Source: a virus
Virus record (IMG/VR): IMGVR_UViG_3300046376_000226
Coordinates: 10,556-74,555 of that record
Direction: 5' to 3' (one strand)
DNA length: 64,000 nucleotides
Shown here: positions 585 to 60,423 of the stretch, one piece after another
Layout of the letters: each line of letters opens with the position of its first letter
Position numbering within the stretch: the first letter of the stretch is position 1
Translations under genes and position numbers: made by a program
Notes under the pieces: generated by a model
Told to the model about the DNA's origin: nothing
Databases searched by the model: none
The model's input: the letters and a program-made list of their open reading frames with translations, nothing else

Positions 585-657
585 CAGGCCGGGAAGGATT
601 CGAACCTTCAGTCGGCGGTTTTGGGGACCGCTGCTTTCCCTGTTAAGCTACCGGCCT
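585..657 (-). tRNA. tRNA-Trp (CCA)
   Basis: Cloverleaf AGGCCGG/CCGGCCT acceptor, GCTT/AAGC D stem, GCGGT-CCCCAAA-ACCGC anticodon arm, GAAGG-TTCGAAT-CCTTC T arm, discriminator G; 3' CCA not encoded. Confidence 0.85.
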
Positions 658-3235: not shown

Positions 3236-4065
3236 AAGAGACCTTTGGCGTTAGCTTTCACTGATACATTGATAGAGCGTTTGACCTGGATCCCGGGCAG
3301 GGAGGGCGTGCAGTTGGGATCGATCGCTAATTGAGCCCGGACACTATCCTGGCAAGCCTGGATATTCAGTTCCCAGCGCAGGAGCCCCAGGCACCCGGCT
3401 CGGACAGTTTCGCCCAAGTTAAGCAGCTTAAACTCGAAAGGATGATCTACCCGGCCGGACGGCACCAGGCCCCGCCTAGGTTGATCCGCGCCGAGGTTAG
3501 CGACTTCCATGGCCATCTCTTTGGCTAGTTGCTCCTGGGCTGCGACTAACATCTGGGCCTGGGCCTCGGCCTGCGCTTTAATTCGAGCCGCTTCATCTAA
3601 AGCCGCCCGGGCTTTCTCCTCGGCTGCTTCCTGGGCAGCCAGAGCCGCGCGAATTTTAGCGTCATGGGCTTCTCGTTCCCGGGCCAGAGCCTCGGCGTGT
3701 TTGCGATCTTGCTCTTTCTGGCGCGCCTCCAGCTCGGCTACGTAAGCATTCAGGAGCCCCAGGATCCGTTTGTGCTCGGCGCCGACAGAGTCACCGATCA
3801 GTCGCGCCTGTTCGTTGATTTGCTCATTAATGCTTTTAAACGGTTCCTGGGCTCCCTTACGGCCTTTGTCGATTTCGTTCAGGAACGCTTTGAGCTGGCC
3901 CGCCAGCTGTTGGGCCGTGGCGAAACTGGCGCTGTCAAAGACCGACACAAACCCAGAGGTGCGATTTAGGAGTGCGTCAGCCCGCTTCTGATCCTTGGGG
4001 TTTACCCGGACCTGGACACTCTGGACGACAAGGGGTTGATCCCCATAGTACGGAGTCAATTCCAT
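3232..4065 (-). CDS. Coiled-coil phage protein next to the recombinase
   Basis: Ala/Glu/Lys-rich coiled coil ending in PGIQV; coupled to bet. Confidence 0.7.
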   Translation of the reverse strand: MELTPYYGDQPLVVQSVQVRVNPKDQKRADALLNRTSGFVSVFDSASFATAQQLAGQLKAFLNEIDKGRKGAQEPFKSINEQINEQARLIGDSVGAEHKRILGLLNAYVAELEARQKEQDRKHAEALAREREAHDAKIRAALAAQEAAEEKARAALDEAARIKAQAEAQAQMLVAAQEQLAKEMAMEVANLGADQPRRGLVPSGRVDHPFEFKLLNLGETVRAGCLGLLRWELNIQACQDSVRAQLAIDPNCTPSLPGIQVKRSINVSVKANAKGLL

Positions 4066-4074
4066 GCGTGTCCC

Positions 4075-4425
4075 TTAGGTAGTTGGCACCGAGTCGGCTT
4101 GTAAACGTTGGAACGTTTCCCAATAGTCTTCAACGGCTTGTTCCAGGACCTCGGCCTGGGCAATAATGTCCTCACGCATTGCCGGGAAATATTCATCCAG
4201 ATGCGCGCGCGCATGTTTCGCCGCGCGCAAAAGTATCGTGCGCAACCCGGCGGCCTGAGTGAAACGGAAGTAGCGACACTCCATCACCGGAGTGCATGAA
4301 CTTAAGCCTCCTACCCCTTTAATGTGATCTGCCAGGGGGGCGATAGCTCTGCGCAGCGCCGCGATTTCCTCGGGCGCATGCCGGTAAAAAATGTGCGCGT
4401 CGATGATCCTATTTTGCACGTCCAT
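4075..4425 (-). CDS. Hypothetical protein
   Basis: 116-aa ORF with AAGGAG RBS directly upstream. Confidence 0.65.
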   Translation of the reverse strand: MDVQNRIIDAHIFYRHAPEEIAALRRAIAPLADHIKGVGGLSSCTPVMECRYFRFTQAAGLRTILLRAAKHARAHLDEYFPAMREDIIAQAEVLEQAVEDYWETFQRLQADSVPTT

Positions 4426-4500
4426 CTCCTTAGGATCAATCGTAGCATGATGGGCTTAGCATGCGCAACGAAAGCATGCTTTAAGGTTAGCTTTTTTCTA

Positions 4501-4610
4501 AGCGCGCCAAGGCTAGTTGTGCGAAAGACTTACCCAGAGCCAGAGTCAACGAGAAACCCGTATCCTGAGAGCGAGCCATCCTGGTTGAAGAGACCCATGA
4601 ACGCTGAGCG
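4501..4610 (+). repeat. Orphan TIGR-like mini-array (about 2 intact units plus a degenerate one)
   Basis: GAGCCA-gagtcaacg-AGAAACCCG-tatcctgag-AGCGAGCCA-tcctggttg-aAGAGACCCA-tgaacgctg-AGCG; same repeats and 9-nt spacers as the large array, opposite strand. Confidence 0.7.
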
Positions 4611-4642
4611 TTAGCTTTTGGAGTAAAGCATGCTTTTTTGGA

Positions 4643-4906
4643 CTAAGCCAGGTACCCGTTAGCTCGAGCCCAGGCCGGTGAATCATGTATCCGGCGGTGA
4701 CAATCGGTGCAGACCGCGATCCAGTCCCCGGTCCGGTTGAGCTGGGCTCCGATCCGGCCCGCGCGATGATGGATCTGGGTGGAGCGTCGCGCGTCGCATA
4801 GCTCGCACCGGGGATGGCTAGCCAGATGCCCTTGCCGCTCTTTTGCGTACAGGCGAAGCGCCCTGGCGCGCTTGGGACTAACGTGCCGGAGGGGGACGCG
4901 TTTCAC
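4643..4906 (-). CDS. Small HNH endonuclease
   Basis: CELC...STQIHHRAGR...WIAVCTDCHRRIH zinc-binding HNH signature. Confidence 0.85.
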   Translation of the reverse strand: MKRVPLRHVSPKRARALRLYAKERQGHLASHPRCELCDARRSTQIHHRAGRIGAQLNRTGDWIAVCTDCHRRIHDSPAWARANGYLA

Positions 4907-5117
4907 TTCCGGAAGAGGCCGATATCCGGGTCAAACAGGATCCCCCAGATCCCGATCGCGATGGCCAAAAAGCCTATCCCTGCCAGGCACAACTCGGCGG
5001 CATTATTCGGTAATGGAATCATAAGCCTGAGAGTACTTGGCCGCTAGATGCATGGCTAATTCTAAAGTGAGCCGGGCCCCAGTTTCAGCAAGCCCACTAT
5101 ACTGGGTCATTCCTTCG

Positions 5118-5570
5118 TCATCCAGGTCCGGGTTGAGTTGTTGGTGGCGCAGCTGGCTTAGGTGATGGCGGGTCACCTCCGGCGCAACCGCTATCATGAA
5201 GTCCCTGACTAGTTCCAGTTGCTTGGTCGTCTCCATAGACAGGGCGAGGCATGGGCTCGTCGAGAGGTTCCCATAACGTAGCGTAGGGTTCAGGGCTAAC
5301 ATCAATCGGCGGGAAAAATTGGCAAACCCAGGCTTGGTCATCGAAGAAAAGGTCCCGTGCCTGCCGCAGGATATGGTGCCCCGGAGGCGTCGCCGTCAAA
5401 TTAGCTGAAGTGTGCCGGACTAGAAGCCTGCGCCAGCCCTCGGAGTCCGAGAGAGTTATCCACCAGATGTCGCCAGAAATGGGCACTAGGAAGTGTCCAT
5501 TCCAGCCATCCACCTCTGAGCCCCCGCGCCGCCAGCGGTTAGCTCTGATTAGCTTTTCGAGCAGGGTCAC
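5118..5570 (-). CDS. Hypothetical phage protein
   Basis: Coupled to 5567-5995; protein-like N-terminal part; tail overlaps the 5003-5341 ORF. Confidence 0.5.
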   Translation of the reverse strand: MTLLEKLIRANRWRRGGSEVDGWNGHFLVPISGDIWWITLSDSEGWRRLLVRHTSANLTATPPGHHILRQARDLFFDDQAWVCQFFPPIDVSPEPYATLWEPLDEPMPRPVYGDDQATGTSQGLHDSGCAGGDPPSPKPAAPPTTQPGPG

Positions 5571-5995
5571 TTTCTGGGCTTTACCTTTTGAATAACCTCT
5601 TTGACTGCCTTGCGTTCCGCAGGCATTAGCGCGGCCAGGTGCCGCGCCCGCCGCGCCGCCCTGGCCTCGGCCCTGGCTGCTGCCCGAGTCGCCGGATCTC
5701 CGGCTACCCCGAGCGGGTCCACATAGAGGCTGGGATCAGGTCGTTCCTCCAGAGTTTCCAGGGCTAGGAATTCTGCCCGAGTCGGCACCGGATACCGGTC
5801 CAAATGTTTTTGCAGGAACTCCCCTATATAGATACTGTCCGCACCTTCGCGCAGTCGCTTGATAGTGTCTTTTTTGAGACTGCAAGTGACATAGCCCCAG
5901 GCATCTTTATCCGGTTTGCCCTTCCTGCCTGCCCCCAGGCGTGAGCCGCCTCTCCCGTTTTTCCGTTTCTTGATCATTTTTAATTTTTTGGCCAT
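5567..5995 (-). CDS. Basic putative DNA-binding protein
   Basis: RGGSRLGAGRK (AT-hook-like GGxRxGAGRK) followed by an RHH-like segment. Confidence 0.65.
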   Translation of the reverse strand: MAKKLKMIKKRKNGRGGSRLGAGRKGKPDKDAWGYVTCSLKKDTIKRLREGADSIYIGEFLQKHLDRYPVPTRAEFLALETLEERPDPSLYVDPLGVAGDPATRAAARAEARAARRARHLAALMPAERKAVKEVIQKVKPRK

Positions 5996-6155
5996 AAAAG
6001 ATCCGATAATAAAATGTTCGTAATGCCGCTGGGTCAGTAATCGTGCCTTCCTTGCGGTTGGCTAGACGATAGCTGATTCCGCTGGAGCGTGCCTCTCTAA
6101 CCGTCGAAAGCGCGCGCCAGTCTAGCATTTGGATGAAAGCATGCTTTTTTCCCAC

Positions 6156-6362
6156 TTATCTTAGATTATTAAAAAAGGGTATGGTTGTGATCTGGTAGTT
6201 TCCCACTGGATGGGTTTCAATCCAGGTCCGGGCCGCTAGTTCGCTCGAAAAGCCGAGCATGGCGAAATAGACGCCAGGGAAAGTGGGACTTTCCCTTTCC
6301 ACCAGGTAGACGGTCTGGCAGACCGTCGCGATATCGTAGTTGAGCAGTGAATCAGTTTTCAT
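6156..6362 (-). CDS. Hypothetical protein
   Basis: 68-aa ORF downstream of the promoter at 6554-6582. Confidence 0.5.
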   Translation of the reverse strand: MKTDSLLNYDIATVCQTVYLVERESPTFPGVYFAMLGFSSELAARTWIETHPVGNYQITTIPFFNNLR

Positions 6363-6553
6363 TTTAGGAAAGTCCCGAGCAGGGTTCCCACCTGCGTCTC
6401 CCGGCGTCAGCCGGACTATTTTACGCTTTATCCCAGTCTCCGGTCGAAGGCTCCCAAGATTCTCTATTCTGCGTAGCTACTGCATTTCGATACGTCTCAG
6501 TGTTGCAACGTGCCTCGAGTCGGTGACCGGCTCAAAACTATCGGAACGCCACT

Positions 6554-6582
6554 AGCCTAAGGCCGGACATTTGAATTGTCAA
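6554..6582 (-). promoter_or_regulatory. Repeated sigma70-like early promoter, copy 1
   Basis: TTGACA-N17-TAGGCT; context conserved with five other copies. Confidence 0.7.
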
Positions 6583-6589
6583 GGGCTAA

Positions 6590-7405
6590 TCAATTAGGAG
6601 GGGGAATGATGCCGTCATGTCCCAGAACCTGCCCTACGTAAGGTCCTCTCACCGGCAGGCCGCGCGCCTTCCTACCCTCTCCCCAGTAGTGGACCAGGAA
6701 AATTTTGACGGCGCGGCGGCGCGCCTTGTTGTCGATGTGAGCGTCAGAGAGCTTACCCTCCAGTAGCCTGGTTTTCGTAACCGTGTCGTCCCGCCAGTTC
6801 TTGGTTGCGAGCAGCTCGGCCGCCGCTTTTTTGTAGTGGCCGGACTCATTGCGCCGGATCTCCTCGGCCTTGAACTCCCGATACAAGCCGCCGTAAAAAC
6901 ATTCCTCCTGCCCCGAAAATTTGACAAACGAATCGCCAATTTTCCAGCAGAGGGTCTTCAGCCGGGAGTTGTATTGCAGTTTCTCGCCTTTGATCCGGCG
7001 ATCGAAGCCGGGAGCCAAGCCCGCAAACTTCCAGAGCGCCGATGGACTGTTCGCTTTGCTAATGTCGATATGCGCGGCTAAGCCAGCTGCTAGGACCGGG
7101 CCGATACCGTACTGAGAGTAAGCCCAGCGGGATTCTACCGGCGCATCGCTCTCTACCCATTTCTGCAACTTAGCCTGGATAAGCGCCTCGCCAAAATGCA
7201 AGTACTCAAAGAACCAGGCATCGAGATCCCGTGGCTCTTCCGTTCGTTTTTTGGCGGCATGCCGTTTCCGGTGCTCCTGACAGTCGTAATATAGTTCGAC
7301 GATTCGGGCCACACTTGAGGCTTCGATTTCGTAGGCTTTTACAATCTCATTGATTAGGTCATTGCGCGCTAGTTTGACTAGTTCCTTGTGTTGTTCTTTT
7401 TTCAT
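6590..7405 (-). CDS. tasA: TIGR-associated Nop-domain RNA-binding protein without a nuclease domain (TasA type; IS110 C-terminal/Nop-like fold)
   Basis: LYYDCQEHR coiled coil; YGIGPVLAAGL (HhH-like), SALWKFAGLAPG, YNSRLKTLCWKIGDSFVK, HIDNKARRRAVKIFLVHYW, GLPVRGPY...LGH; no N-terminal RuvC/DEDD or HNH; abuts a dual-repeat array. Confidence 0.85.
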   Translation of the reverse strand: MKKEQHKELVKLARNDLINEIVKAYEIEASSVARIVELYYDCQEHRKRHAAKKRTEEPRDLDAWFFEYLHFGEALIQAKLQKWVESDAPVESRWAYSQYGIGPVLAAGLAAHIDISKANSPSALWKFAGLAPGFDRRIKGEKLQYNSRLKTLCWKIGDSFVKFSGQEECFYGGLYREFKAEEIRRNESGHYKKAAAELLATKNWRDDTVTKTRLLEGKLSDAHIDNKARRRAVKIFLVHYWGEGRKARGLPVRGPYVGQVLGHDGIIPPPN

Positions 7406-9615
7406 TCGCTCTTTCGCTATGGGTGTCTCTGTTTCGCTGGCTCGCTCATTCCGTATTGGGTGTCTCTTTCTTTTTGGCTCGCTCCTATGCTATGGGCGTC
7501 TCGGTTTCGCTGGCTCGCTAATTCATGATGGGTGCCTCTATCTTTTTGGCTCGCTAATTTGTTATGGGCGTCTCGTATCTACTGACTCGCTCATTCGCTG
7601 TGGGTGCCTCGTTCTTATTGGCTCGCTTCCGCTCCTGGGGCGTCTCTGGATTCGCGGCTCGCTCGTTTACGGTGGATGTTTTTTGGTATGTGGCTCGCTC
7701 CATTGAAGTGGCTGACGCTCTTCCAACATGACTCGCTCACGGCTTTCGGATGTCTCGCGAACAATGACTCGCTCCATTGAACTGGTTGTCTCTTTCATCA
7801 TGGCTCGCTCGTACGCTCTGGATATCTCTCTTTTAGCGGCTCGCTCATTTTCGATGGGTGGCTCAGCTGCTCTGACTCGCTCGCGTATCGTGGATGGCTC
7901 GTGGGCAGCGGCTCGCTCGCACTCTCTGGTTGTCTTGTGGTTCAGGGCTCGCTCGCTGCTGATGGGTGTCTCATATGGTGTGGCTCGCTCGCGGCCCTTG
8001 GTCGTCTCATTAATTTTGGCTCGCTCTTTTGTGGTGAGTGTTTTTCCTTTTGCATGGCTCGCTCGTTCATCACGGTTATCTCTCGTAGAGTGGCTCGCTC
8101 CTGTCTGTTGGGTGCCTCTTAAACCTTGGCTACTGCATTCCTCCGCTTGCGATGTATGGGGTTCTCTATCCGTTCGACTCGCTCCTCGTCTTTTGGATAT
8201 CTCGTCAGGGCTGGCTCGCTCTCACCTTTTGGGGCTCTTCATCGACAATGGCTCGTTCCCCGGCTTTGGGTGTCTTTTACGGATTGACTCGCTCATCTTT
8301 AAGGTTGTGACTCAATGGTCATGGCTCGCTTCTTATTTCTTGGGTGTCTCTTGCCAGTTGGCTCGCTCCTAGAATATGTGGCTCTGTTCGGTTCCCTTGG
8401 CTCGCTCTCATGCGATGGGGTTCTCTCACCATACGGCTCGCTATTCCGTCTCTGGGCGTCTCCGGTATTGTGGCTCGCTATTGTCCAATGGGCGTCTTAT
8501 GGATTCTGGCTCGCTTCTCATTGCTGGTTGTCTCGTATTGCTCGGCTCGCTCCAACTTAATGGGTGCCTCATCTGCTTGGCTCGCTCTCTTCGCGCGGTT
8601 ATCTACAATCGCATGGCTCGCTCATCCGCGATGGGTTGCTCTTTCTGAATGGCTCGCTCCCATGCCTTGGGTATCTCACTTTGCTTGGCTCGCTCTTGCG
8701 TTATGGGTTGCTCGTCATGGATGGCTCGCTCATTCATTTTGGGACTCTCTTTTGCCATGGCTCGCTCTTTACATCGGTGGGATAGCTCTTCTGATTTGAC
8801 TCGCTCGTTCTGGTTGGATGGCTCATCAGGGTTGGCTCGCTCTTCCGTCTCAGGGTTTCTGTTTTCTCATGACTCGCTCTATTTGAATGGGTGCCTCTAC
8901 AACCGTGACTCGCTCGCCTATTATGGGGTGACGTCCTCTTGATTGACTCGCTCTCTCACTTTGGGTTTCTTGCTTGGCGCGGCTCGCTTAAGCTCTATGG
9001 GTTTCTCCTTGGTGTTGGCTCGCTCATTGTGCTTGGATGGCTACCGAATCAAGGCTCGCTTTCTTTTCTTGGATATCTCTCGATTAATGACTCGCTCCTC
9101 TCAATTGGGTGACTCTTCGAGAATGGCTCGCTAGTTTATCCTGGGGTTGCTCTTCTTGTAGTGGCTCGCTTTGTTTTCGCGTGGATGATTCACCTTCTGT
9201 GGCTCGCTCTTCATTTATGGGGTTCTCACGCAGGCTGGCTCGCTCGCACATGTTGGGTATGGGTAATCTCGCGTAGTCCGGCTCGCTCCAATGATTTGGG
9301 GTTCTCTATCGCTCTGGCTCGCTCCCGCTCTGTGGATGGCTCGTTACCTATTGGCTCGCTTGTGATTCATGGGCGTCTTGCACCATTTGGCTAGCTCCTT
9401 TCGAATGGGCTCCTCAAGTTTCATGGCTCGCTTGTATATTGTGGGATTACTCCGAGGGCTTGGCTCGCTTTACAGACGTGGGTTGCTCCGGGTTCCTGGC
9501 TCGCTCGTGACATATGGGCGTCTCGTACCTATTGGCTCGCTCGTTTATCCTGGGTTGCTCCTAATTGATGGCTCCGCTCGTTCGGCGACGGTTGTCTTTT
9601 GGGGCTCGGCTCGCT
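7404..9615 (-). ncRNA. TIGR (tandem interspaced guide RNA) array, about 60 units of 36 nt
   Basis: Minus-strand unit = AGCGAGCCA - 9-nt spacer - AGACACCCA (variable loop repeat) - 9-nt spacer; about 60 units counted by eye; both repeats start AG and end CCA; last repeat merges with the tasA ATG. Confidence 0.9.
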
Positions 9616-9785
9616 CTCCGAAAACTTCGTAGAGCTTGCCGCCAAAAGACAGGTCATTTTGATTGGTTTGGACCCAATCATATTCTCTGATAATTACCAT
9701 AAAAAATGCCCTTTTCGACCCCCGCTTTAAACGCACCAGGTTGACCGCAGGCGCGTCGCAAGGCCGAGCAGGTGCATTGGACCTG

Positions 9786-9855
9786 TGCGCAACGTTGCGC
9801 ATCCTGGGGCATCCTCGAGCGTTTGTGGGCCATAGCCAAATGATGACATGTGTCA
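9786..9855. repeat. About 70-bp element with TGCGCAACGTTGCGCA palindrome, duplicated at 57584-57653
   Basis: Direct comparison of the two copies. Confidence 0.75.
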
Positions 9856-9962
9856 GGGTTTGCGCCTGGTTAAGTACTCCGAAAGCGCGATCAGCGTGAA
9901 GTACAAGATGATCGCCAAGGCACCACTCAAGAACCCTAGAAGGAAAGTGGTTACATCCATAC

Positions 9963-11266
9963 CTATTGGACTAGCAGGTTCCGGATAATGACTCCAGCGC
10001 AGTCGCGCGCTGAGACGTGGGTGCCAGCCGGTGCGTTATCCTGGAGCGTCTGCCGCCAGTCCTCTGCCATGACGGCCGACAGCAGTGCCTGACCCTCTGA
10101 GCCCTTGGTCCAGGCGCTTGCTATCTGGATGATATAATGCCGGACCCGTTCCCAGTACCGGGCATCGCGGTCGTAAACAGTCGCTTTCATTTTGCCGCCT
10201 CGCACCATTTGTCAATGACCCGTTGGGCGGCTGCTATGGCCTGCCCGAGGCTTTCATAGTAGCCAGTGGTCTGGCCATCGGCGTGAGCCATCCAGGTGAG
10301 CACTCCCTGACTATAATAGGAGTGGATGCCGATCTCGTGCTGCCGGTATTCGATTACGTGATCGTATCGGACCAGCCGGTCGTTAAGTCTAAATGCGTAC
10401 CTCATAGTGGAATCCATTTACCCTGGACTAAGCGAGCGGCGGCTTTGATGTCGCCGTAGCCTTTGCGCGAATCATACGTCCGGACTTCGCCGCCGTTAGC
10501 CAGGCGGACGCCAATGGTGCTCCCTTTGACGAAGATCACCTCGGCGGGAGTATTGTTGCCTCCCTTACCGGTGACTAGAACGTAGTCACCGGCTCGTAGC
10601 GTGCTCACTTTCATCGGGAGAGAGCGTCGTAAGTACTTGGGCTTTCCCACCGGTCATGAAGTGCGATCGGTTGTTCGCTCGGGAACCGGCTATCACTGGA
10701 ATAGATGAAGTTCCCGCCAAACATTGGACCCACTAAACCCTTTGGTTGATAAACTGGTTCAGCGTGCAGATAATTTCCTCGGCGCACCAAGCGCACAGGA
10801 GGTCGTTCTGGGTTGGGTGCGAAGATCTCAGCCTCTTTACCCAACTCGACTAAGGTCACTTCCTCGCACTGGCTGCTGACGCCTCCGTTGCTGCAATCCC
10901 AGCCGCATTTGTAGATCAGGCATACGAGCCCTAGCATAGATTCAGAGTTGCTCATAGCTCACCTCCGTTGCGGCTGCGCCAGTACTCCATCACGTACTCA
11001 CGCAGTGCCTGCTTAGTGGGTAAGCCGCCCAGTCCTTTATTGGCAACGGTATCCCTGCTGACAGACCATTGGTCCTCGGACTTGAGGTCCGCATAGAACA
11101 AGCCTCCCTGCTCGTACCAGTAGCCAAGCGGATGGTAATCACCTCCGTTTGTCAGTTTGGTGCTATCACCGGTCAAGCGAGGTCGACCCGGTCCGTCGCT
11201 ACCGCAGGCCACTACCAGTCCACTTTTCCTCAGTACCACGCGCCGTTTGCCATACATCATGCTCAT
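9963..11266 (-). other. Run of overlapping small early-region hypothetical ORFs (9963-10190, 10187-10417, 10402-10614, 10611-10955, 10952-11266)
   Basis: Head-to-tail start/stop overlaps, some with GGAGG RBS; no recognisable function. Confidence 0.65.
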
Positions 11267-32494: not shown

Positions 32495-33625
32495 GTGAAT
32501 ACGCTGCAAGAAGTATTGACCACTTTAGGTAGCCAGAAACTGAGCCCGGGTTATCTGACCCCTGCTGGCACCGGCACGGCGCACGATACGCTCCGAGCGC
32601 TTAAACAGGGTTTCGATCCTTATACCCTGATCAGTAACCCGATTGCTCGGCCCGCGCTGCTCTTTACTCCGGCCTGGGTCAGAAGCATTGCCGTTGGCCA
32701 GGATGCGATTTTCTTGGATGGTGTTGATGGGAACCTGGACTTAAGCCACGCTCAGGGACCGGCGTATCTATTTACGGAGCCGGTCTGATGCCCAATAAGC
32801 CTAAAGGGACAATCAAAGGTAAAAAGATCACCTCTGCCCAACAGCGCCTCTTTGGTACGGCTCGCGGCATGCAGGAGAGCGGCAAATCGAGCAAGACCGC
32901 AGCGGGCAAGATCGCGGCTTCGATTGCCCCAAGCGACCTTCACAACATTGCAAAAAAGCCCAAGGGCGGTTACCGCTCAAGGAAAGGTAAATAAATATGG
33001 CAGCCAAGAAAAAAGCACCGCCCAAACGGAAGACCGCCAGCGCTAAAGCCGCCCCACCCAAACGAGTCGGCTCATTTAAACCTCCTAAAAAGCCAAAGAT
33101 GCCAACGCTGGGCGGCGGCATGATGGGTCTGGGCGGCACTGGTGCAGGCGGGATGCTCCCGTAGAGCCCGTGAGCGTAGAGCAATACTACGCTAGCTTGA
33201 TGAACCAGCAGGCCCAGGCGGCTCAGCAGCCTCCCTGGCTTAGTGGTTACGCTAACCAGTACGGTAACCTGCTCCAGCAAGCTCAGCCGTTCCAGCAGGA
33301 AGGACTACAAAATGCGGCTGTTATCCCGGATGGGGTCGAACTGGATTTCGAGGGTGACCGGTGCGGTAAATCCTACCGGATCAAGCAGAACTGTATTAAG
33401 AGCTGGGACATCTATTTCTACGACTGGCACGAGGGGGGCTGGTACCAGTTGCGCGACTACGGGGTGACCCAGAAGCGAACTGAAGCGATTGCGGCCTGCA
33501 ATCAGCATGCGCGCGACTATAAGCTGATCGATTTCCTTCCTACCCGGCCGAAGTTTAAGTCTAATTGGTATGGCGCCATCGCTGGAGCTGTTGCGTCTGC
33601 TGCGTCTGCTGCGGCTTGGATATGA
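32495..33625 (+). other. Plus-strand island of four small genes (32495-32788, 32788-32994, 32997-33164, 33170-33625); two are very Lys-rich
   Basis: Coupled ORFs; SAQQRLFGTARG and MAAKKKAPPKRK basic proteins; TTGACT -35-like hexamer upstream at about 32465. Confidence 0.6.
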
Positions 33626-33720
33626 TGGGGTGGGCGAGTGGTTATAAGCCAACGGTGATACGTGACCGGTAGCATATCACCTCTGCTAGCGGTCCGCTGG
33701 TTCGAATCCAGCCCCCATCA
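33624..33720 (+). tRNA. tRNA-like RNA with long variable arm and non-canonical anticodon arm (identity undetermined)
   Basis: GATGGGG/CCCCATC acceptor, GGC-GAGTGGTTATAA-GCC D arm, GCTGG-TTCGAAT-CCAGC T arm; no canonical 7-nt anticodon loop with U33. Confidence 0.6.
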
Positions 33721-33762
33721 TGCGCAACGTTGCGCTATCGGCGCGCCGCCGAAAAACGAGAA

Positions 33763-56020: not shown

Positions 56021-57262
56021 TTACATCGAGTAACCGCTGGCAGTGCCGGGGTAGCTCGGGCAAGTCAGGAAGTTGAACGTTGGGTTGCAACGCTTATAAA
56101 GGATCGGAATCACCGCATGCGGCCGTTCCGGGCGGTATGCACGGATCATCTGGTAAATATGGTATCCGTAGTCGCCATAGGTGTTACAGTCGTTATCGCG
56201 AATAACGGTAAATTCAAGCTCTCCTTGGGCGAATTGGGCTGGAAATTTCCAATCTCCGACTCCCAAATATTGCTCCGGAACCAGGCGCCGGAAGGAATTC
56301 GCGAACATGAGGAACCCCACCTCGTACTGGGCATAGAGCCAGGCCGGGTTAGTCCGGGCCCCGAAACCAGTCGTAACGGGAACTGCGATCTCGGGCTCAA
56401 TAAATTGAGGAATTAGTTGACCATTCAACACGGTGAACGTGTTAAAACGCAGTGGTTGCTGGTCGATACCGAAAGCGATCCCCCGGTAAGGTCCCTCCCA
56501 CGAGTACCCTGTTAAACTTTCATTACCAATCTCGTAACGGCCGGTCGTCAGGTATTGCAAATCCTGGTGAACATTCAGCTCGTCACGAAACACGTTGAGC
56601 TGGTTCTGGCTGCCGATGAATTTAGCGACGGTGCCCTTCTCGCTCTCGAAGCTCTCGCACAAGAGTGTCTCGTGAGCGAACACGAGCAAGTACTGGAGAA
56701 AGCTAAAGGTCAGGTTGGCGTCCGGCGGGGTCGAATCATTGACAGGCACATCGATCATCTGGACATCGCCATTGACCATCGCTTCGAACGTCCTCCCCTG
56801 ATTGATTTTGACTTTGAAGCCAGAGTGCAGGAACAGCTGGCTACGAACGTCGCAATTTGCCAGATAGAGGAGTTGCTTACTTAGGCTGTCTTGGACCGCG
56901 ACGTACGAATTCTGGAATGCCGATCGCATCTGTTTTACACAGACTTTTGGACCGCGACCGCGCAGAGTTCCTAGCCGGGTGATGTACTCAGTCGTCCCGA
57001 CTTGGGCAATTTGCCCGAAGGTGCCGCAGGAATCTGTGTCGTTGATGTACTCTGGGAGTACCAAGGACTGGCCCAGAATTGGGCGTTCAACGACCACATT
57101 GCGTTGTTGATCACTAATCGCATTTTCGAATACACCGCCATCCAAACAGTCATTATAAACGGCTCGACGCATGATGAGCGTCGTAATTTGACCGACTAGT
57201 CTGTTATTGTCCCGGTTGGCGAAATCTGTTGCCTGAACGGGAGTTACGATACAGTCACCGAT
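56021..57262 (-). CDS. Putative major capsid protein (probable start at ATC 57262; first ATG at 57172)
   Basis: About 410 aa; strong GAAAGGA RBS; follows portal and scaffold and precedes adaptor/nozzle; LRGRGPKVCVK, NPAWLYA.YE, RDNDCNTYGDYG. Confidence 0.7.
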   Translation of the reverse strand: MGDCIVTPVQATDFANRDNNRLVGQITTLIMRRAVYNDCLDGGVFENAISDQQRNVVVERPILGQSLVLPEYINDTDSCGTFGQIAQVGTTEYITRLGTLRGRGPKVCVKQMRSAFQNSYVAVQDSLSKQLLYLANCDVRSQLFLHSGFKVKINQGRTFEAMVNGDVQMIDVPVNDSTPPDANLTFSFLQYLLVFAHETLLCESFESEKGTVAKFIGSQNQLNVFRDELNVHQDLQYLTTGRYEIGNESLTGYSWEGPYRGIAFGIDQQPLRFNTFTVLNGQLIPQFIEPEIAVPVTTGFGARTNPAWLYAQYEVGFLMFANSFRRLVPEQYLGVGDWKFPAQFAQGELEFTVIRDNDCNTYGDYGYHIYQMIRAYRPERPHAVIPILYKRCNPTFNFLTCPSYPGTASGYSM

Positions 57263-59674: not shown

Positions 59675-60423
59675 TTTGATATCAGGAGTGCATCACATTG
59701 GGCTATGTCGCCATTAGCTTGGACCCCGTTCCCGTCCCAGCCACTTCCGGGCGGATAAAATTCCTGGACCTGGTAATGGAGTTCATCCTCTAAGACATGG
59801 CGCAGTTCTCGAGTAGAAGAATTCTGACGCTCCAGGGCGGTCGGGTTAATCTCGATCCAGATTGTCGGCCGGTCACGAAGGATGGTCTCAGTCGCCCCGC
59901 GTAGCGCCCTCACTTCGCTTCCCTCGATATCGATCTTCATGAGTGAGACCGGTCCGGCCAGGGAGGTGTTATCAATGACGACCTGGCGATGTCGGCTCAT
60001 TGGCCATTGGCGAGCCGGATCGATCAGCCGCGAGCCCGCCACCACATCTGGCTCATGGAAAAGCCAGACCTCGTCTTCAATCTCGCCCACGGCATAAGGC
60101 AGACACAATGCTCTGTGACAGTTGCGCCGGAGGCATTCATACTGGGTCGGGTGCGGTTCATAAGCGACTACGGTCCCGCGTGGCCCGACTGCGTTTAGAT
60201 AAAAGATGGTGTGATCCCCGATCGCTGCCCCTAGATCGTACACGAGCGAGCCTTCCTTGATATAAGGCAGGAGCTTTTGCAAGACCGGCTGATCATGGTC
60301 CAGGCGTTTAGCCTGTTCAACCCAGCGGGACAGATGGCTGTCATGCTTTAAGACCCACCAGCCTTCCGGGGTCCGCATGACGTCTTCTTCGCGGAAAAGC
60401 ATGCTTTCTGGATTCACAATCAT
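59671..60423 (-). CDS. FkbM-family SAM-dependent methyltransferase
   Basis: VYDLGAAIGDHT, VVAYEPHP, LMKIDIEGSEVRALRGA, RPTIWIE; start taken at the ATG overlapping the upstream stop. Confidence 0.9.
   Translation of the reverse strand: MIVNPESMLFREEDVMRTPEGWWVLKHDSHLSRWVEQAKRLDHDQPVLQKLLPYIKEGSLVYDLGAAIGDHTIFYLNAVGPRGTVVAYEPHPTQYECLRRNCHRALCLPYAVGEIEDEVWLFHEPDVVAGSRLIDPARQWPMSRHRQVVIDNTSLAGPVSLMKIDIEGSEVRALRGATETILRDRPTIWIEINPTALERQNSSTRELRHVLEDELHYQVQEFYPPGSGWDGNGVQANGDIAQCDALLISK

Follow-up and report, generated by a model that had tools for sequence, protein, structure and literature searches.

We analyzed the DNA of a 74,555-bp virus record from IMG/VR (IMGVR_UViG_3300046376_000226), whose sample source was soil and whose completeness according to CheckV was 100%. 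The window referred to throughout is the whole stretch of 64,000 nt that corresponds to bases 10556-74555 of this record, and positions are given within it. A sequence-only reading of the window had noticed a long array of short repeats beside a gene for a protein with a Nop-like domain, and assigned both to TIGR-Tas, a family of RNA-guided systems described in 2025 in which more than 20,000 tas loci have been catalogued. The analysis presented here deals with this main array, with the adjoining gene, henceforth tasA, and with a second, inverted mini-array. The coordinates of these and other features are collected in Table 1.

Main array and nuclease-free Tas protein

The main array is read on the minus strand, where each unit is made up of an edge repeat, AGCGAGCCA, a spacer A of about 9 nt, a loop repeat with the form AG-NNNN-CCA, and a spacer B of about 9 nt. 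When the array was parsed by dynamic programming, 117 alternating edge and loop repeats were found from 9559 to 7428, and these corresponded to 58 full edge-A-loop-B units. A further two units, at 9615-9560, are degenerate, and the array closes at 7410-7406 with AGCGA, an edge that lacks its 3' part; at the 5' end, the edge is full-length but degenerate (AGCGAGCCG), i.e., there is no truncation on that side. The parse and the per-position counts bore out the unit formula of the sequence-only reading, with two alternating repeats that end in CCA, as well as its count of about 60 units. Its strict 36-nt period was real as far as the main period is concerned, but the word strict was an overstatement, as the exact 9+9+9+9 layout was observed in 37 out of 58 units and the remaining ones measured 35-43 nt. 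Tandem Repeats Finder gave periods of 36 and 72 for the array, in which an eroded stretch was seen near 8165-8100. Scanning the window for the pattern AGCGAGCCA-N9-AG-N4-CCA, with no more than one mismatch allowed, returned 43 matches, 42 of them inside the array, versus 0.03 expected from dinucleotide-preserving shuffles. Dispersed single guide units were not found elsewhere in the genome, where the strict pattern gave 0 matches and a relaxed one 19, versus 12.5 ± 3.5.

The edge repeat is almost invariant, and the loop repeat is constant only at AG....CCA. Both share a frame of box D, (G)AG, and box C, CCA; the G preceding AG was present in about 78% of units and is position 9 of the spacer, so that each spacer offers 8 freely variable bases and one mostly-G base. 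As the earlier reading had it, the spacers are mostly unique: 8 pairs were at least 8/9 identical, versus 3.3 ± 1.7 under the null. These near-duplicates concentrate next to tasA, where they lie 72 nt apart and where Tandem Repeats Finder placed its 72-nt period too, which speaks for recent duplications of two units at a time and point changes thereafter. Spacers are also rich in A (37-40% versus 20-24% in the genome), their purine fractions are 0.59 and 0.64 versus 0.50 ± 0.016 for random 8-mers of the phage genome, their GC content is about 43% versus 56% for the phage, and C was never present at position B7 or at position 9. Spacers of the closest relatives showed a similar trend in composition, and those of distant relatives did not.

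Variation in natural populations was detected at the level of units. A low-depth variant in the source sample lacks 110 nt, or about three units, between 7621 and 7732, and, in a second soil study, one variant skips exactly 36 nt (8946 to 8983, one unit). The array stretches 7539-7689, 7941-8173 and 8352-8502 were identical in this second study, and the pieces of tasA found there differed by 3-5%. Whole units are thus gained and lost in nature, and the spacer content stays constant over that distance at least; the unchanged stretches speak for a system that is being maintained.

Next to the array, tasA encodes a protein that scored 152 bits, above the curated cut-off of 100, with the NCBIfam model NF052498, named TIGR-Tas system RNA-guided endonuclease. 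The only sequence matches in the PDB, searched with phmmer, were SpTasH (4.4e-20) and TaTasR (5.9e-20): residues 92-269 of TasA aligned with 140-302 of SpTasH, and the alignment with TaTasR started at residue 36 of TasA and 118 of TaTasR. Both alignments span the common coiled-coil/Nop core, and the N-terminal HNH or RuvC domains lie outside them. With BLASTP, TasA and SpTasH matched at 2e-26, with 34% identity over the Nop core. An AlphaFold model built with 68 homologs had a mean predicted local distance difference test (pLDDT) value of 90.2 and a predicted template modeling (pTM) score of 0.86, and contained 12 helices and no strands. When this model was submitted to Foldseek, the top 10 hits were TasH or TasR chains, with a probability of 1.00 and a template modeling score of about 0.6, and IS621-type recombinases came next. 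The assignment to TIGR-Tas made beforehand was thus upheld by both sequence and fold. The IS110-like and Nop-like motifs described at the same time fared unequally; the Nop fold was recovered, but the IS110 signal was weak. Scans against Pfam and NCBIfam matched Tas and IS110-type models only, and the latter scored below their cut-offs (PF02371, 18.8 versus 21.3; NF033542, 18.3 versus 140 bits).

The alignments that start past the nuclease domains leave no N-terminal room for RuvC or HNH, and the model is all-helical, so TasA lacks both, in line with the TasA type proposed earlier. Residues Y256 and H263 align with Y289 and H296 of SpTasH, the pair that matures guides in that enzyme (PMC13421893); H263 was invariant in alignments of 16 and of 68 homologs, and Y256 was invariant in the former and at least 90% conserved in the latter. 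This Tyr/His processing pair is a mark of dual-repeat TIGR systems and is absent in stem-loop ones. The phage protein, nuclease-free and with the pair in place, thus belongs to the dual-repeat TasA proteins.

The TIGR arrays of Faure et al. have two alternating repeats of 8-12 nt, spacers of 9 nt and truncated edge repeats at their ends, yield 36-nt tigRNAs upon processing, and follow the rule that the box C/box D frames of the two repeats match (PMC12045711). The phage locus shows these traits at the sequence level: a Tas core, alternating repeats, shared box frames, truncated edges, the Tyr/His pair, and no nuclease domain. Collectively, this indicates that it is a genuine TIGR-TasA locus of the dual-repeat type, and probably an active one as far as its sequence tells. 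The kind is already known, and the locus is a further example of it, not a new class of system.

The array runs straight into the tasA open reading frame (ORF), as had been noticed at the outset: the start of the ORF abuts the truncated edge AGCGA with a gap of 0 nt. The sole purine-rich tract before tasA that resembles a ribosome-binding site, GAAAGAG, is formed by the last spacer B and this truncated edge. A similar arrangement was observed in a related locus, L023 (contig Ga0307472_100127176, 380-470), which has a TasA about 41% identical and arrays on both sides of the gene. Its upstream array ends in ...AGAGCACCA-TAGGAGGAG-AGCG-ATG, where the last spacer, TAGGAGGAG, holds a perfect Shine-Dalgarno sequence for tasA. 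From these sequences, we infer that tasA takes its ribosome-binding region from the last unit of the array. On the other side of the array, the non-coding gap contains an AT-rich stretch, a 7-bp hairpin (9680-9660) and a 14-nt perfect palindrome, GCGCAACGTTGCGC (9800-9787), which could be an operator. Hairpins near the arrays fold no better than shuffled sequence, and no convincing terminator was detected ahead of either array or past the end of tasA.

When the whole 74.5-kb genome was scanned, an exact edge repeat was found in one place apart from the main array, namely in the mini-array. It reads AGCCA-GAGTCAACG-AGAAACCCG-TATCCTGAG-AGCGAGCCA, and continues after this internal edge with TCCTGGTTGA-AGAGACCCA-TGAACGCTG-AGCG; two complete units are thus bounded by a 5'-truncated edge, AGCCA, at the start and a 3'-truncated edge, AGCG, at the end. 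As judged from these ends, the sequence suggests a processing cut at AGCG/AGCCA. A weak hairpin and then a U-run lie directly downstream, and inverted arrays were not found among the relatives. Copies of the palindrome AAAGCATGCTTT flank the mini-array, and the copies at 4625 and 6136 lie in direct repeats of about 28 nt (4613-4640 and 6123-6150), each with AAAGCATGCTTTTTT. In one contig of the source sample, the end of the mini-array (…GAACGCTGAGCGT) is fused to 6123, and the 1.5 kb bounded by the direct repeats (4613-6122), with the HNH gene and four small ORFs, is lost.

Table 1. Features of the locus and of the rest of the window.
Feature	Position	Strand	Remarks
tasA	6590..7405	-	271-aa nuclease-free Tas protein; coiled coil and Nop domain
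Main dual-repeat TIGR array	7406..9615	-	about 60 units; 2,210 nt
Last array unit joined to tasA start	7406..7446	-	...AGACACCCA-TAGCGAAAG-AGCGA-ATG
Non-coding gap	9616..9962	-	347 nt; presumed leader/promoter region
Inverted two-unit mini-array	4538..4610	+	73 nt; about 2 kb from tasA/main array
Palindrome AAAGCATGCTTT	4471..4482, 4625-4636, 6136-6147, 60396-60407		4 copies versus 0.17 expected in the window
HNH gene, stand-alone	4643-4906		87 aa; beside the mini-array
tRNA-like gene	33623-33721	+	99 nt; four-base anticodon (tacg); ARAGORN
tRNA-Trp (cca)	585-657	-	ordinary; ARAGORN

The TIGR locus sits within a leftward-read block of small early genes, and its neighbors encode a RecT-like annealing protein, an exonuclease, a small HNH endonuclease, a PAPS-reductase-like protein and ORFs with no assignment. 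Tail-fiber and other virion genes lie further right in the window, and the tail-fiber, RecT-like and HNH genes back the phage origin of the record. Relatives of the phage RecT were sought in IMG/VR and none was found; a scan of 4000-10500 with Rfam 15 gave zero matches. The 87-aa HNH protein was considered as a nuclease partner acting in trans with TasA, and was discarded because it is not similar to the HNH domain that TasH carries.

Related phages and candidate targets of the guides

The same edge repeat was found in 25 related loci, almost all with the array downstream of tasA. Counting only the arrays that are uncut by contig ends, and leaving the closest TasA relatives (P0002-P0008, 77-85% identity) out of the comparison, these arrays have about 8 to 24 units, and that of the phage is 2.5 to 7 times as long and lies upstream of tasA only, with none downstream. 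Published dual-repeat arrays have a mean of about 16 tigRNAs (65,635 in 4,126 arrays), 'most often 5 to 15', and occur on either side of tas (PMC12045711). The position of the phage array is thus known elsewhere, and its size is at the high end.

To place the phage, its capsid-like protein (56021-57172) retrieved 20 loci with 93-96% protein identity, and ten genomes, G001-G010, were taken whole; they are the IMG/VR records behind L094-L110 and represent a family of soil phages of about 75 kb. They share 20-27% of the phage genome at about 70% nucleotide identity, and the TIGR neighborhood is not part of what is shared. tasA was present in three of the 11 related phages, namely the source phage, G004 (52% identity) and G009 (59%), and the arrays of the latter two, with 22 and 35 units, lie downstream of the gene. 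It was not found in G001 or G002, both 100% complete, nor in the six partial related genomes; chains of edge repeats seen in G001 and G002 were attributed to chance. With this patchy presence, the module is accessory, and divergent versions of it are exchanged between related phages.

The target of a guide was modeled as spacer A, a gap of 0-2 bp and the reverse complement of spacer B, a geometry derived from the published 8-nt 3' overhangs; the opposite geometry and sets of mis-paired A and B spacers served as controls. With up to two mismatches and in either geometry, the guides of the main array and the mini-array had no targets beyond chance in the 74.5-kb genome of the phage itself. Among 276 kb of tasA-related loci, guide 8658 (A, TTCAGAAAG; B, TCGCGGATG) matched at 18/18 positions, with a 2-bp gap and the correct geometry, at 492-511 of L009 (contig Ga0318562_10031567), a locus whose TasA is 57% identical. 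The candidate site, TTCAGAAAG-AT-CATCCGCGA, lies 55-75 nt upstream of dnaB, a DnaB-type helicase gene, and falls within the 3' portion of a 180-aa ORF whose end runs over the start of the helicase gene. The number of such matches expected by chance, adjusted for base composition, was 0.0022 over the approximately 427 kb made up of the phage's own genome and the related loci; with 615 kb of related phage genomes added, for approximately 1 Mb in all, it was about 0.005. The 180-aa ORF has no homolog in the source phage, no relatives in IMG/VR, and no Pfam or PHROG family.

Further matches in related phages fell one position short. Guide 8766 matched at 17/18 positions in G004, within a 162-aa ORF two genes past the array of that phage, and the mismatch is at spacer position 1, where SpTasH tolerates one (PMC13421893). 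The homolog of this ORF in the source phage (20966-21322, minus strand) is 36% identical; members of the same ORF family also occur in G002, G003 and G010. A guide of G009 (TCATACATG / AGCCGGAGG) matched at 17/18 positions, again with the mismatch at position 1, at G005 16122, G007 37629 and G008 20657. These are one conserved site in the gene of a Gly/Gln-rich virion protein, in three phages with no tasA on their contigs, and the homologous site of G009 itself has 6 mismatches to the guide. For the mini-array guides, 2 and 1 matches were found in IMG/VR, on unrelated contigs that no other guide matched. A 17/18 match of the unit parsed at 9248 was discarded, as its spacer register was off by 4 nt. 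The L009 pattern was also considered as a signal of a host and rejected: it had 34 matches in bacterial and archaeal genomes versus about 17 expected, and a common coding motif, F-R-K-x-I-R-D/E, explains the excess. Apart from three orthologous Pyrinomonadaceae genes, these matches fell in no coherent taxon.

Proposed mechanism and competing explanations

Taking sequence and structural model together, we regard the locus as very probably a functional TIGR-TasA system, of the dual-repeat type, from a tailed soil phage. By analogy with the systems described in the literature, the array and tasA would be read leftward as a single transcript, starting in the gap at 9616-9962 or arriving by read-through from upstream genes. 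TasA dimers would bind every unit and cut inside the edge repeats, giving about 60 different 36-nt tigRNAs, plus two from the mini-array, which would be transcribed separately. Each ribonucleoprotein would then open a DNA site of about 18 bp, with base pairs forming between spacer A and one strand and between spacer B and the other. As there is no nuclease, the complex would be expected, by homology, to stay bound and to block transcription or replication. A feedback on the translation of TasA would probably result from its binding or cutting at the last unit. As targets, competing phages, other mobile elements or the host are the most likely, with the phage itself spared.

Several observations weigh against this picture or against parts of it. 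A scan with the sigma-70 consensus detected no promoter upstream of either array, the minus strand of the gap before the main array included, and the DNA of the locus was present in none of the RNA runs in which it was sought. The composition of the spacers indicates that the guides are no random sample of DNA like that of the phage; the cause could be the composition of the targets or a constraint on the RNA. With regard to targets, the L009 pattern had 0 matches in IMG/VR. When 256 unique guides of the family were compared with 957 kb and duplicate sites were collapsed, three events of the right geometry with up to one mismatch were found versus a mean of 1.7 (range 0-5) for mis-paired guides, and the wrong geometry gave one; the result was not significant. 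The inter-phage reading hangs on one perfect match, which is also the only match that is improbable by chance when taken singly.

Two uses of the same machinery are of comparable standing. It may be aimed at the bacterial host, with 60 guides that silence genes or promoters during infection, either for takeover or as counter-defense. Such a role was named as possible by the authors of the repression study (bioRxiv 10.64898/2026.09.09.750476), it agrees with spacers that are lower in GC and A-rich, as expected of AT-rich promoter or intergenic DNA or of a genome with lower GC, and it sits well with the lack of self-targets and with a locus placed among early and DNA-metabolism genes. Against it, the 34 matches of the genome-collection scan were accounted for by a common peptide motif, and we hold the host role to be a tentative possibility. 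We give the same tentative weight to a role against competing phages or mobile elements, in which the replication or late genes of co-infecting relatives would be blocked. For this role speak the perfect match of guide 8658 upstream of dnaB in another TasA phage, the match of guide 8766 in G004, with a mismatch at a tolerated position and an own homolog so divergent, and the match of the G009 guide in three tasA-less contigs, as well as the patchiness of the module among related phages, as is often seen for genes of competition. The combined test speaks against it, no further guide matches the same targets, and 58 of the 60 guides have no match in approximately 1 Mb of related phage DNA. The specific proposal that the array is an inter-phage weapon, in which guide 8658 blocks the replication module of a competitor near dnaB and the other guides cover further soil competitors, is doubtful; likewise, from the sequence match, it is rather unlikely that L009 is a true natural target of guide 8658.

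The remaining explanations are far less probable. The array could be a decaying relic that grew by duplication and drift, so that most guides are now targetless; near-duplicate spacers at 72-nt offsets by tasA, the eroded units at 8165-8100 and the unit-level deletions in natural populations would agree with decay, but the tasA gene is intact, with the processing pair retained, the edge repeats are near-invariant over 60 units, and array stretches are identical across two soil studies despite the difference of 3-5% in tasA, all of which makes a relic improbable. That the guides regulate genes of the phage itself, as a lifecycle switch, is less probable still; regulation of the viral lifecycle is among the roles suggested in the literature, but no self-site beyond chance was found. 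Finally, the 36-nt repeat might be translated as a repetitive protein, or the array might be of the CRISPR type or a tandem repeat of the ordinary sort. It is true that 36 nt equals 12 codons and that the plus strand of the array is crossed by ORFs as long as 214 aa. However, length changes of 1-7 nt in 21 of the 58 units break any reading frame, and the ORFs, which are split among all the frames, match nothing in Pfam. Moreover, conservation is confined to two 9-nt blocks with free spacers between them and the neighboring gene encodes a Tas protein, and we give this explanation next to no credence.

A functional TIGR-TasA locus with these properties would be a test case for natural guide targets and for the gain of spacers, as it brings together a complete genome, 60 guides, ten related genomes, variants at the level of units, and one target candidate. 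The fusion of an array to a start codon, which recurs in L023, allows a direct test of whether guide maturation and Tas translation are coupled. If true, the pair of guide 8658 and L009 would be among the first natural target assignments for dual-repeat TIGR-TasA, and, along with the patchy and divergent tasA modules, it would point to an RNA-guided arms race between phages.

Comparison with known systems

Two families that might be confused with this locus were considered and set aside. In the case of CRISPR-Cas, the array has two alternating 9-nt repeats and 9-nt spacers, not a single repeat of 25-36 nt, and there are no cas genes. An identity as an IS110 RNA-guided transposase was rejected because the Pfam and NCBIfam scores were under the cut-offs and there is no beta-containing domain. 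TasA does have an RNA-binding Nop-like domain in common with the IS110-family recombinases (IS621; PDB 8wt9), but it lacks their DEDD/RuvC-like catalytic domain, and is accompanied by a long guide array instead of a single bridge RNA.

Among the TIGR systems with a nuclease, the locus resembles SpTIGR-TasH of Salicola phage CGphi29 (PDB 9w03 and 21kl; PMC13421893) in its dual-repeat array, its phage setting and its Tyr/His pair, and SpTasH is the closest solved structure to the phage TasA. TasH, however, bears an N-terminal HNH nuclease and cuts DNA, whereas the phage protein has no HNH domain. In this regard, TasA is like the nuclease-free MbTasA and PlTasA, for both of which DNA binding and transcriptional repression have been demonstrated (bioRxiv 10.64898/2026.09.09.750476; 10.64898/2026.08.11.744272), and guide-dependent binding and repression would be expected from it by analogy. 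For MbTasA, RNA-guided DNA binding and reversible repression of transcription have been shown (bioRxiv 10.64898/2026.09.09.750476), and the idea of programmable binding or repression put forward in the sequence-only reading agrees with these experiments on other TasA proteins. Both MbTasA and PlTasA use stem-loop tigRNAs and are devoid of the Tyr/His processing loop, whereas the phage system is of the dual-repeat type and has kept this loop.

The nearest counterpart is FpTIGR of Flavonifractor plautii (PMC12045711), with which the locus shares a Nop-only Tas protein, a unit of 36 nt, matching box frames, a 3'-truncated terminal edge and a phage setting. It departs from FpTIGR and from the published dual-repeat TasA systems in several respects. 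The array has about 60 units, versus the usual 5 to 15, and box D is (G)AG in both repeats instead of UG. The array is found on the upstream side only, where it joins the start codon of tasA directly, with no terminator after the array. Moreover, a second, inverted array of two units is found 2 kb away.

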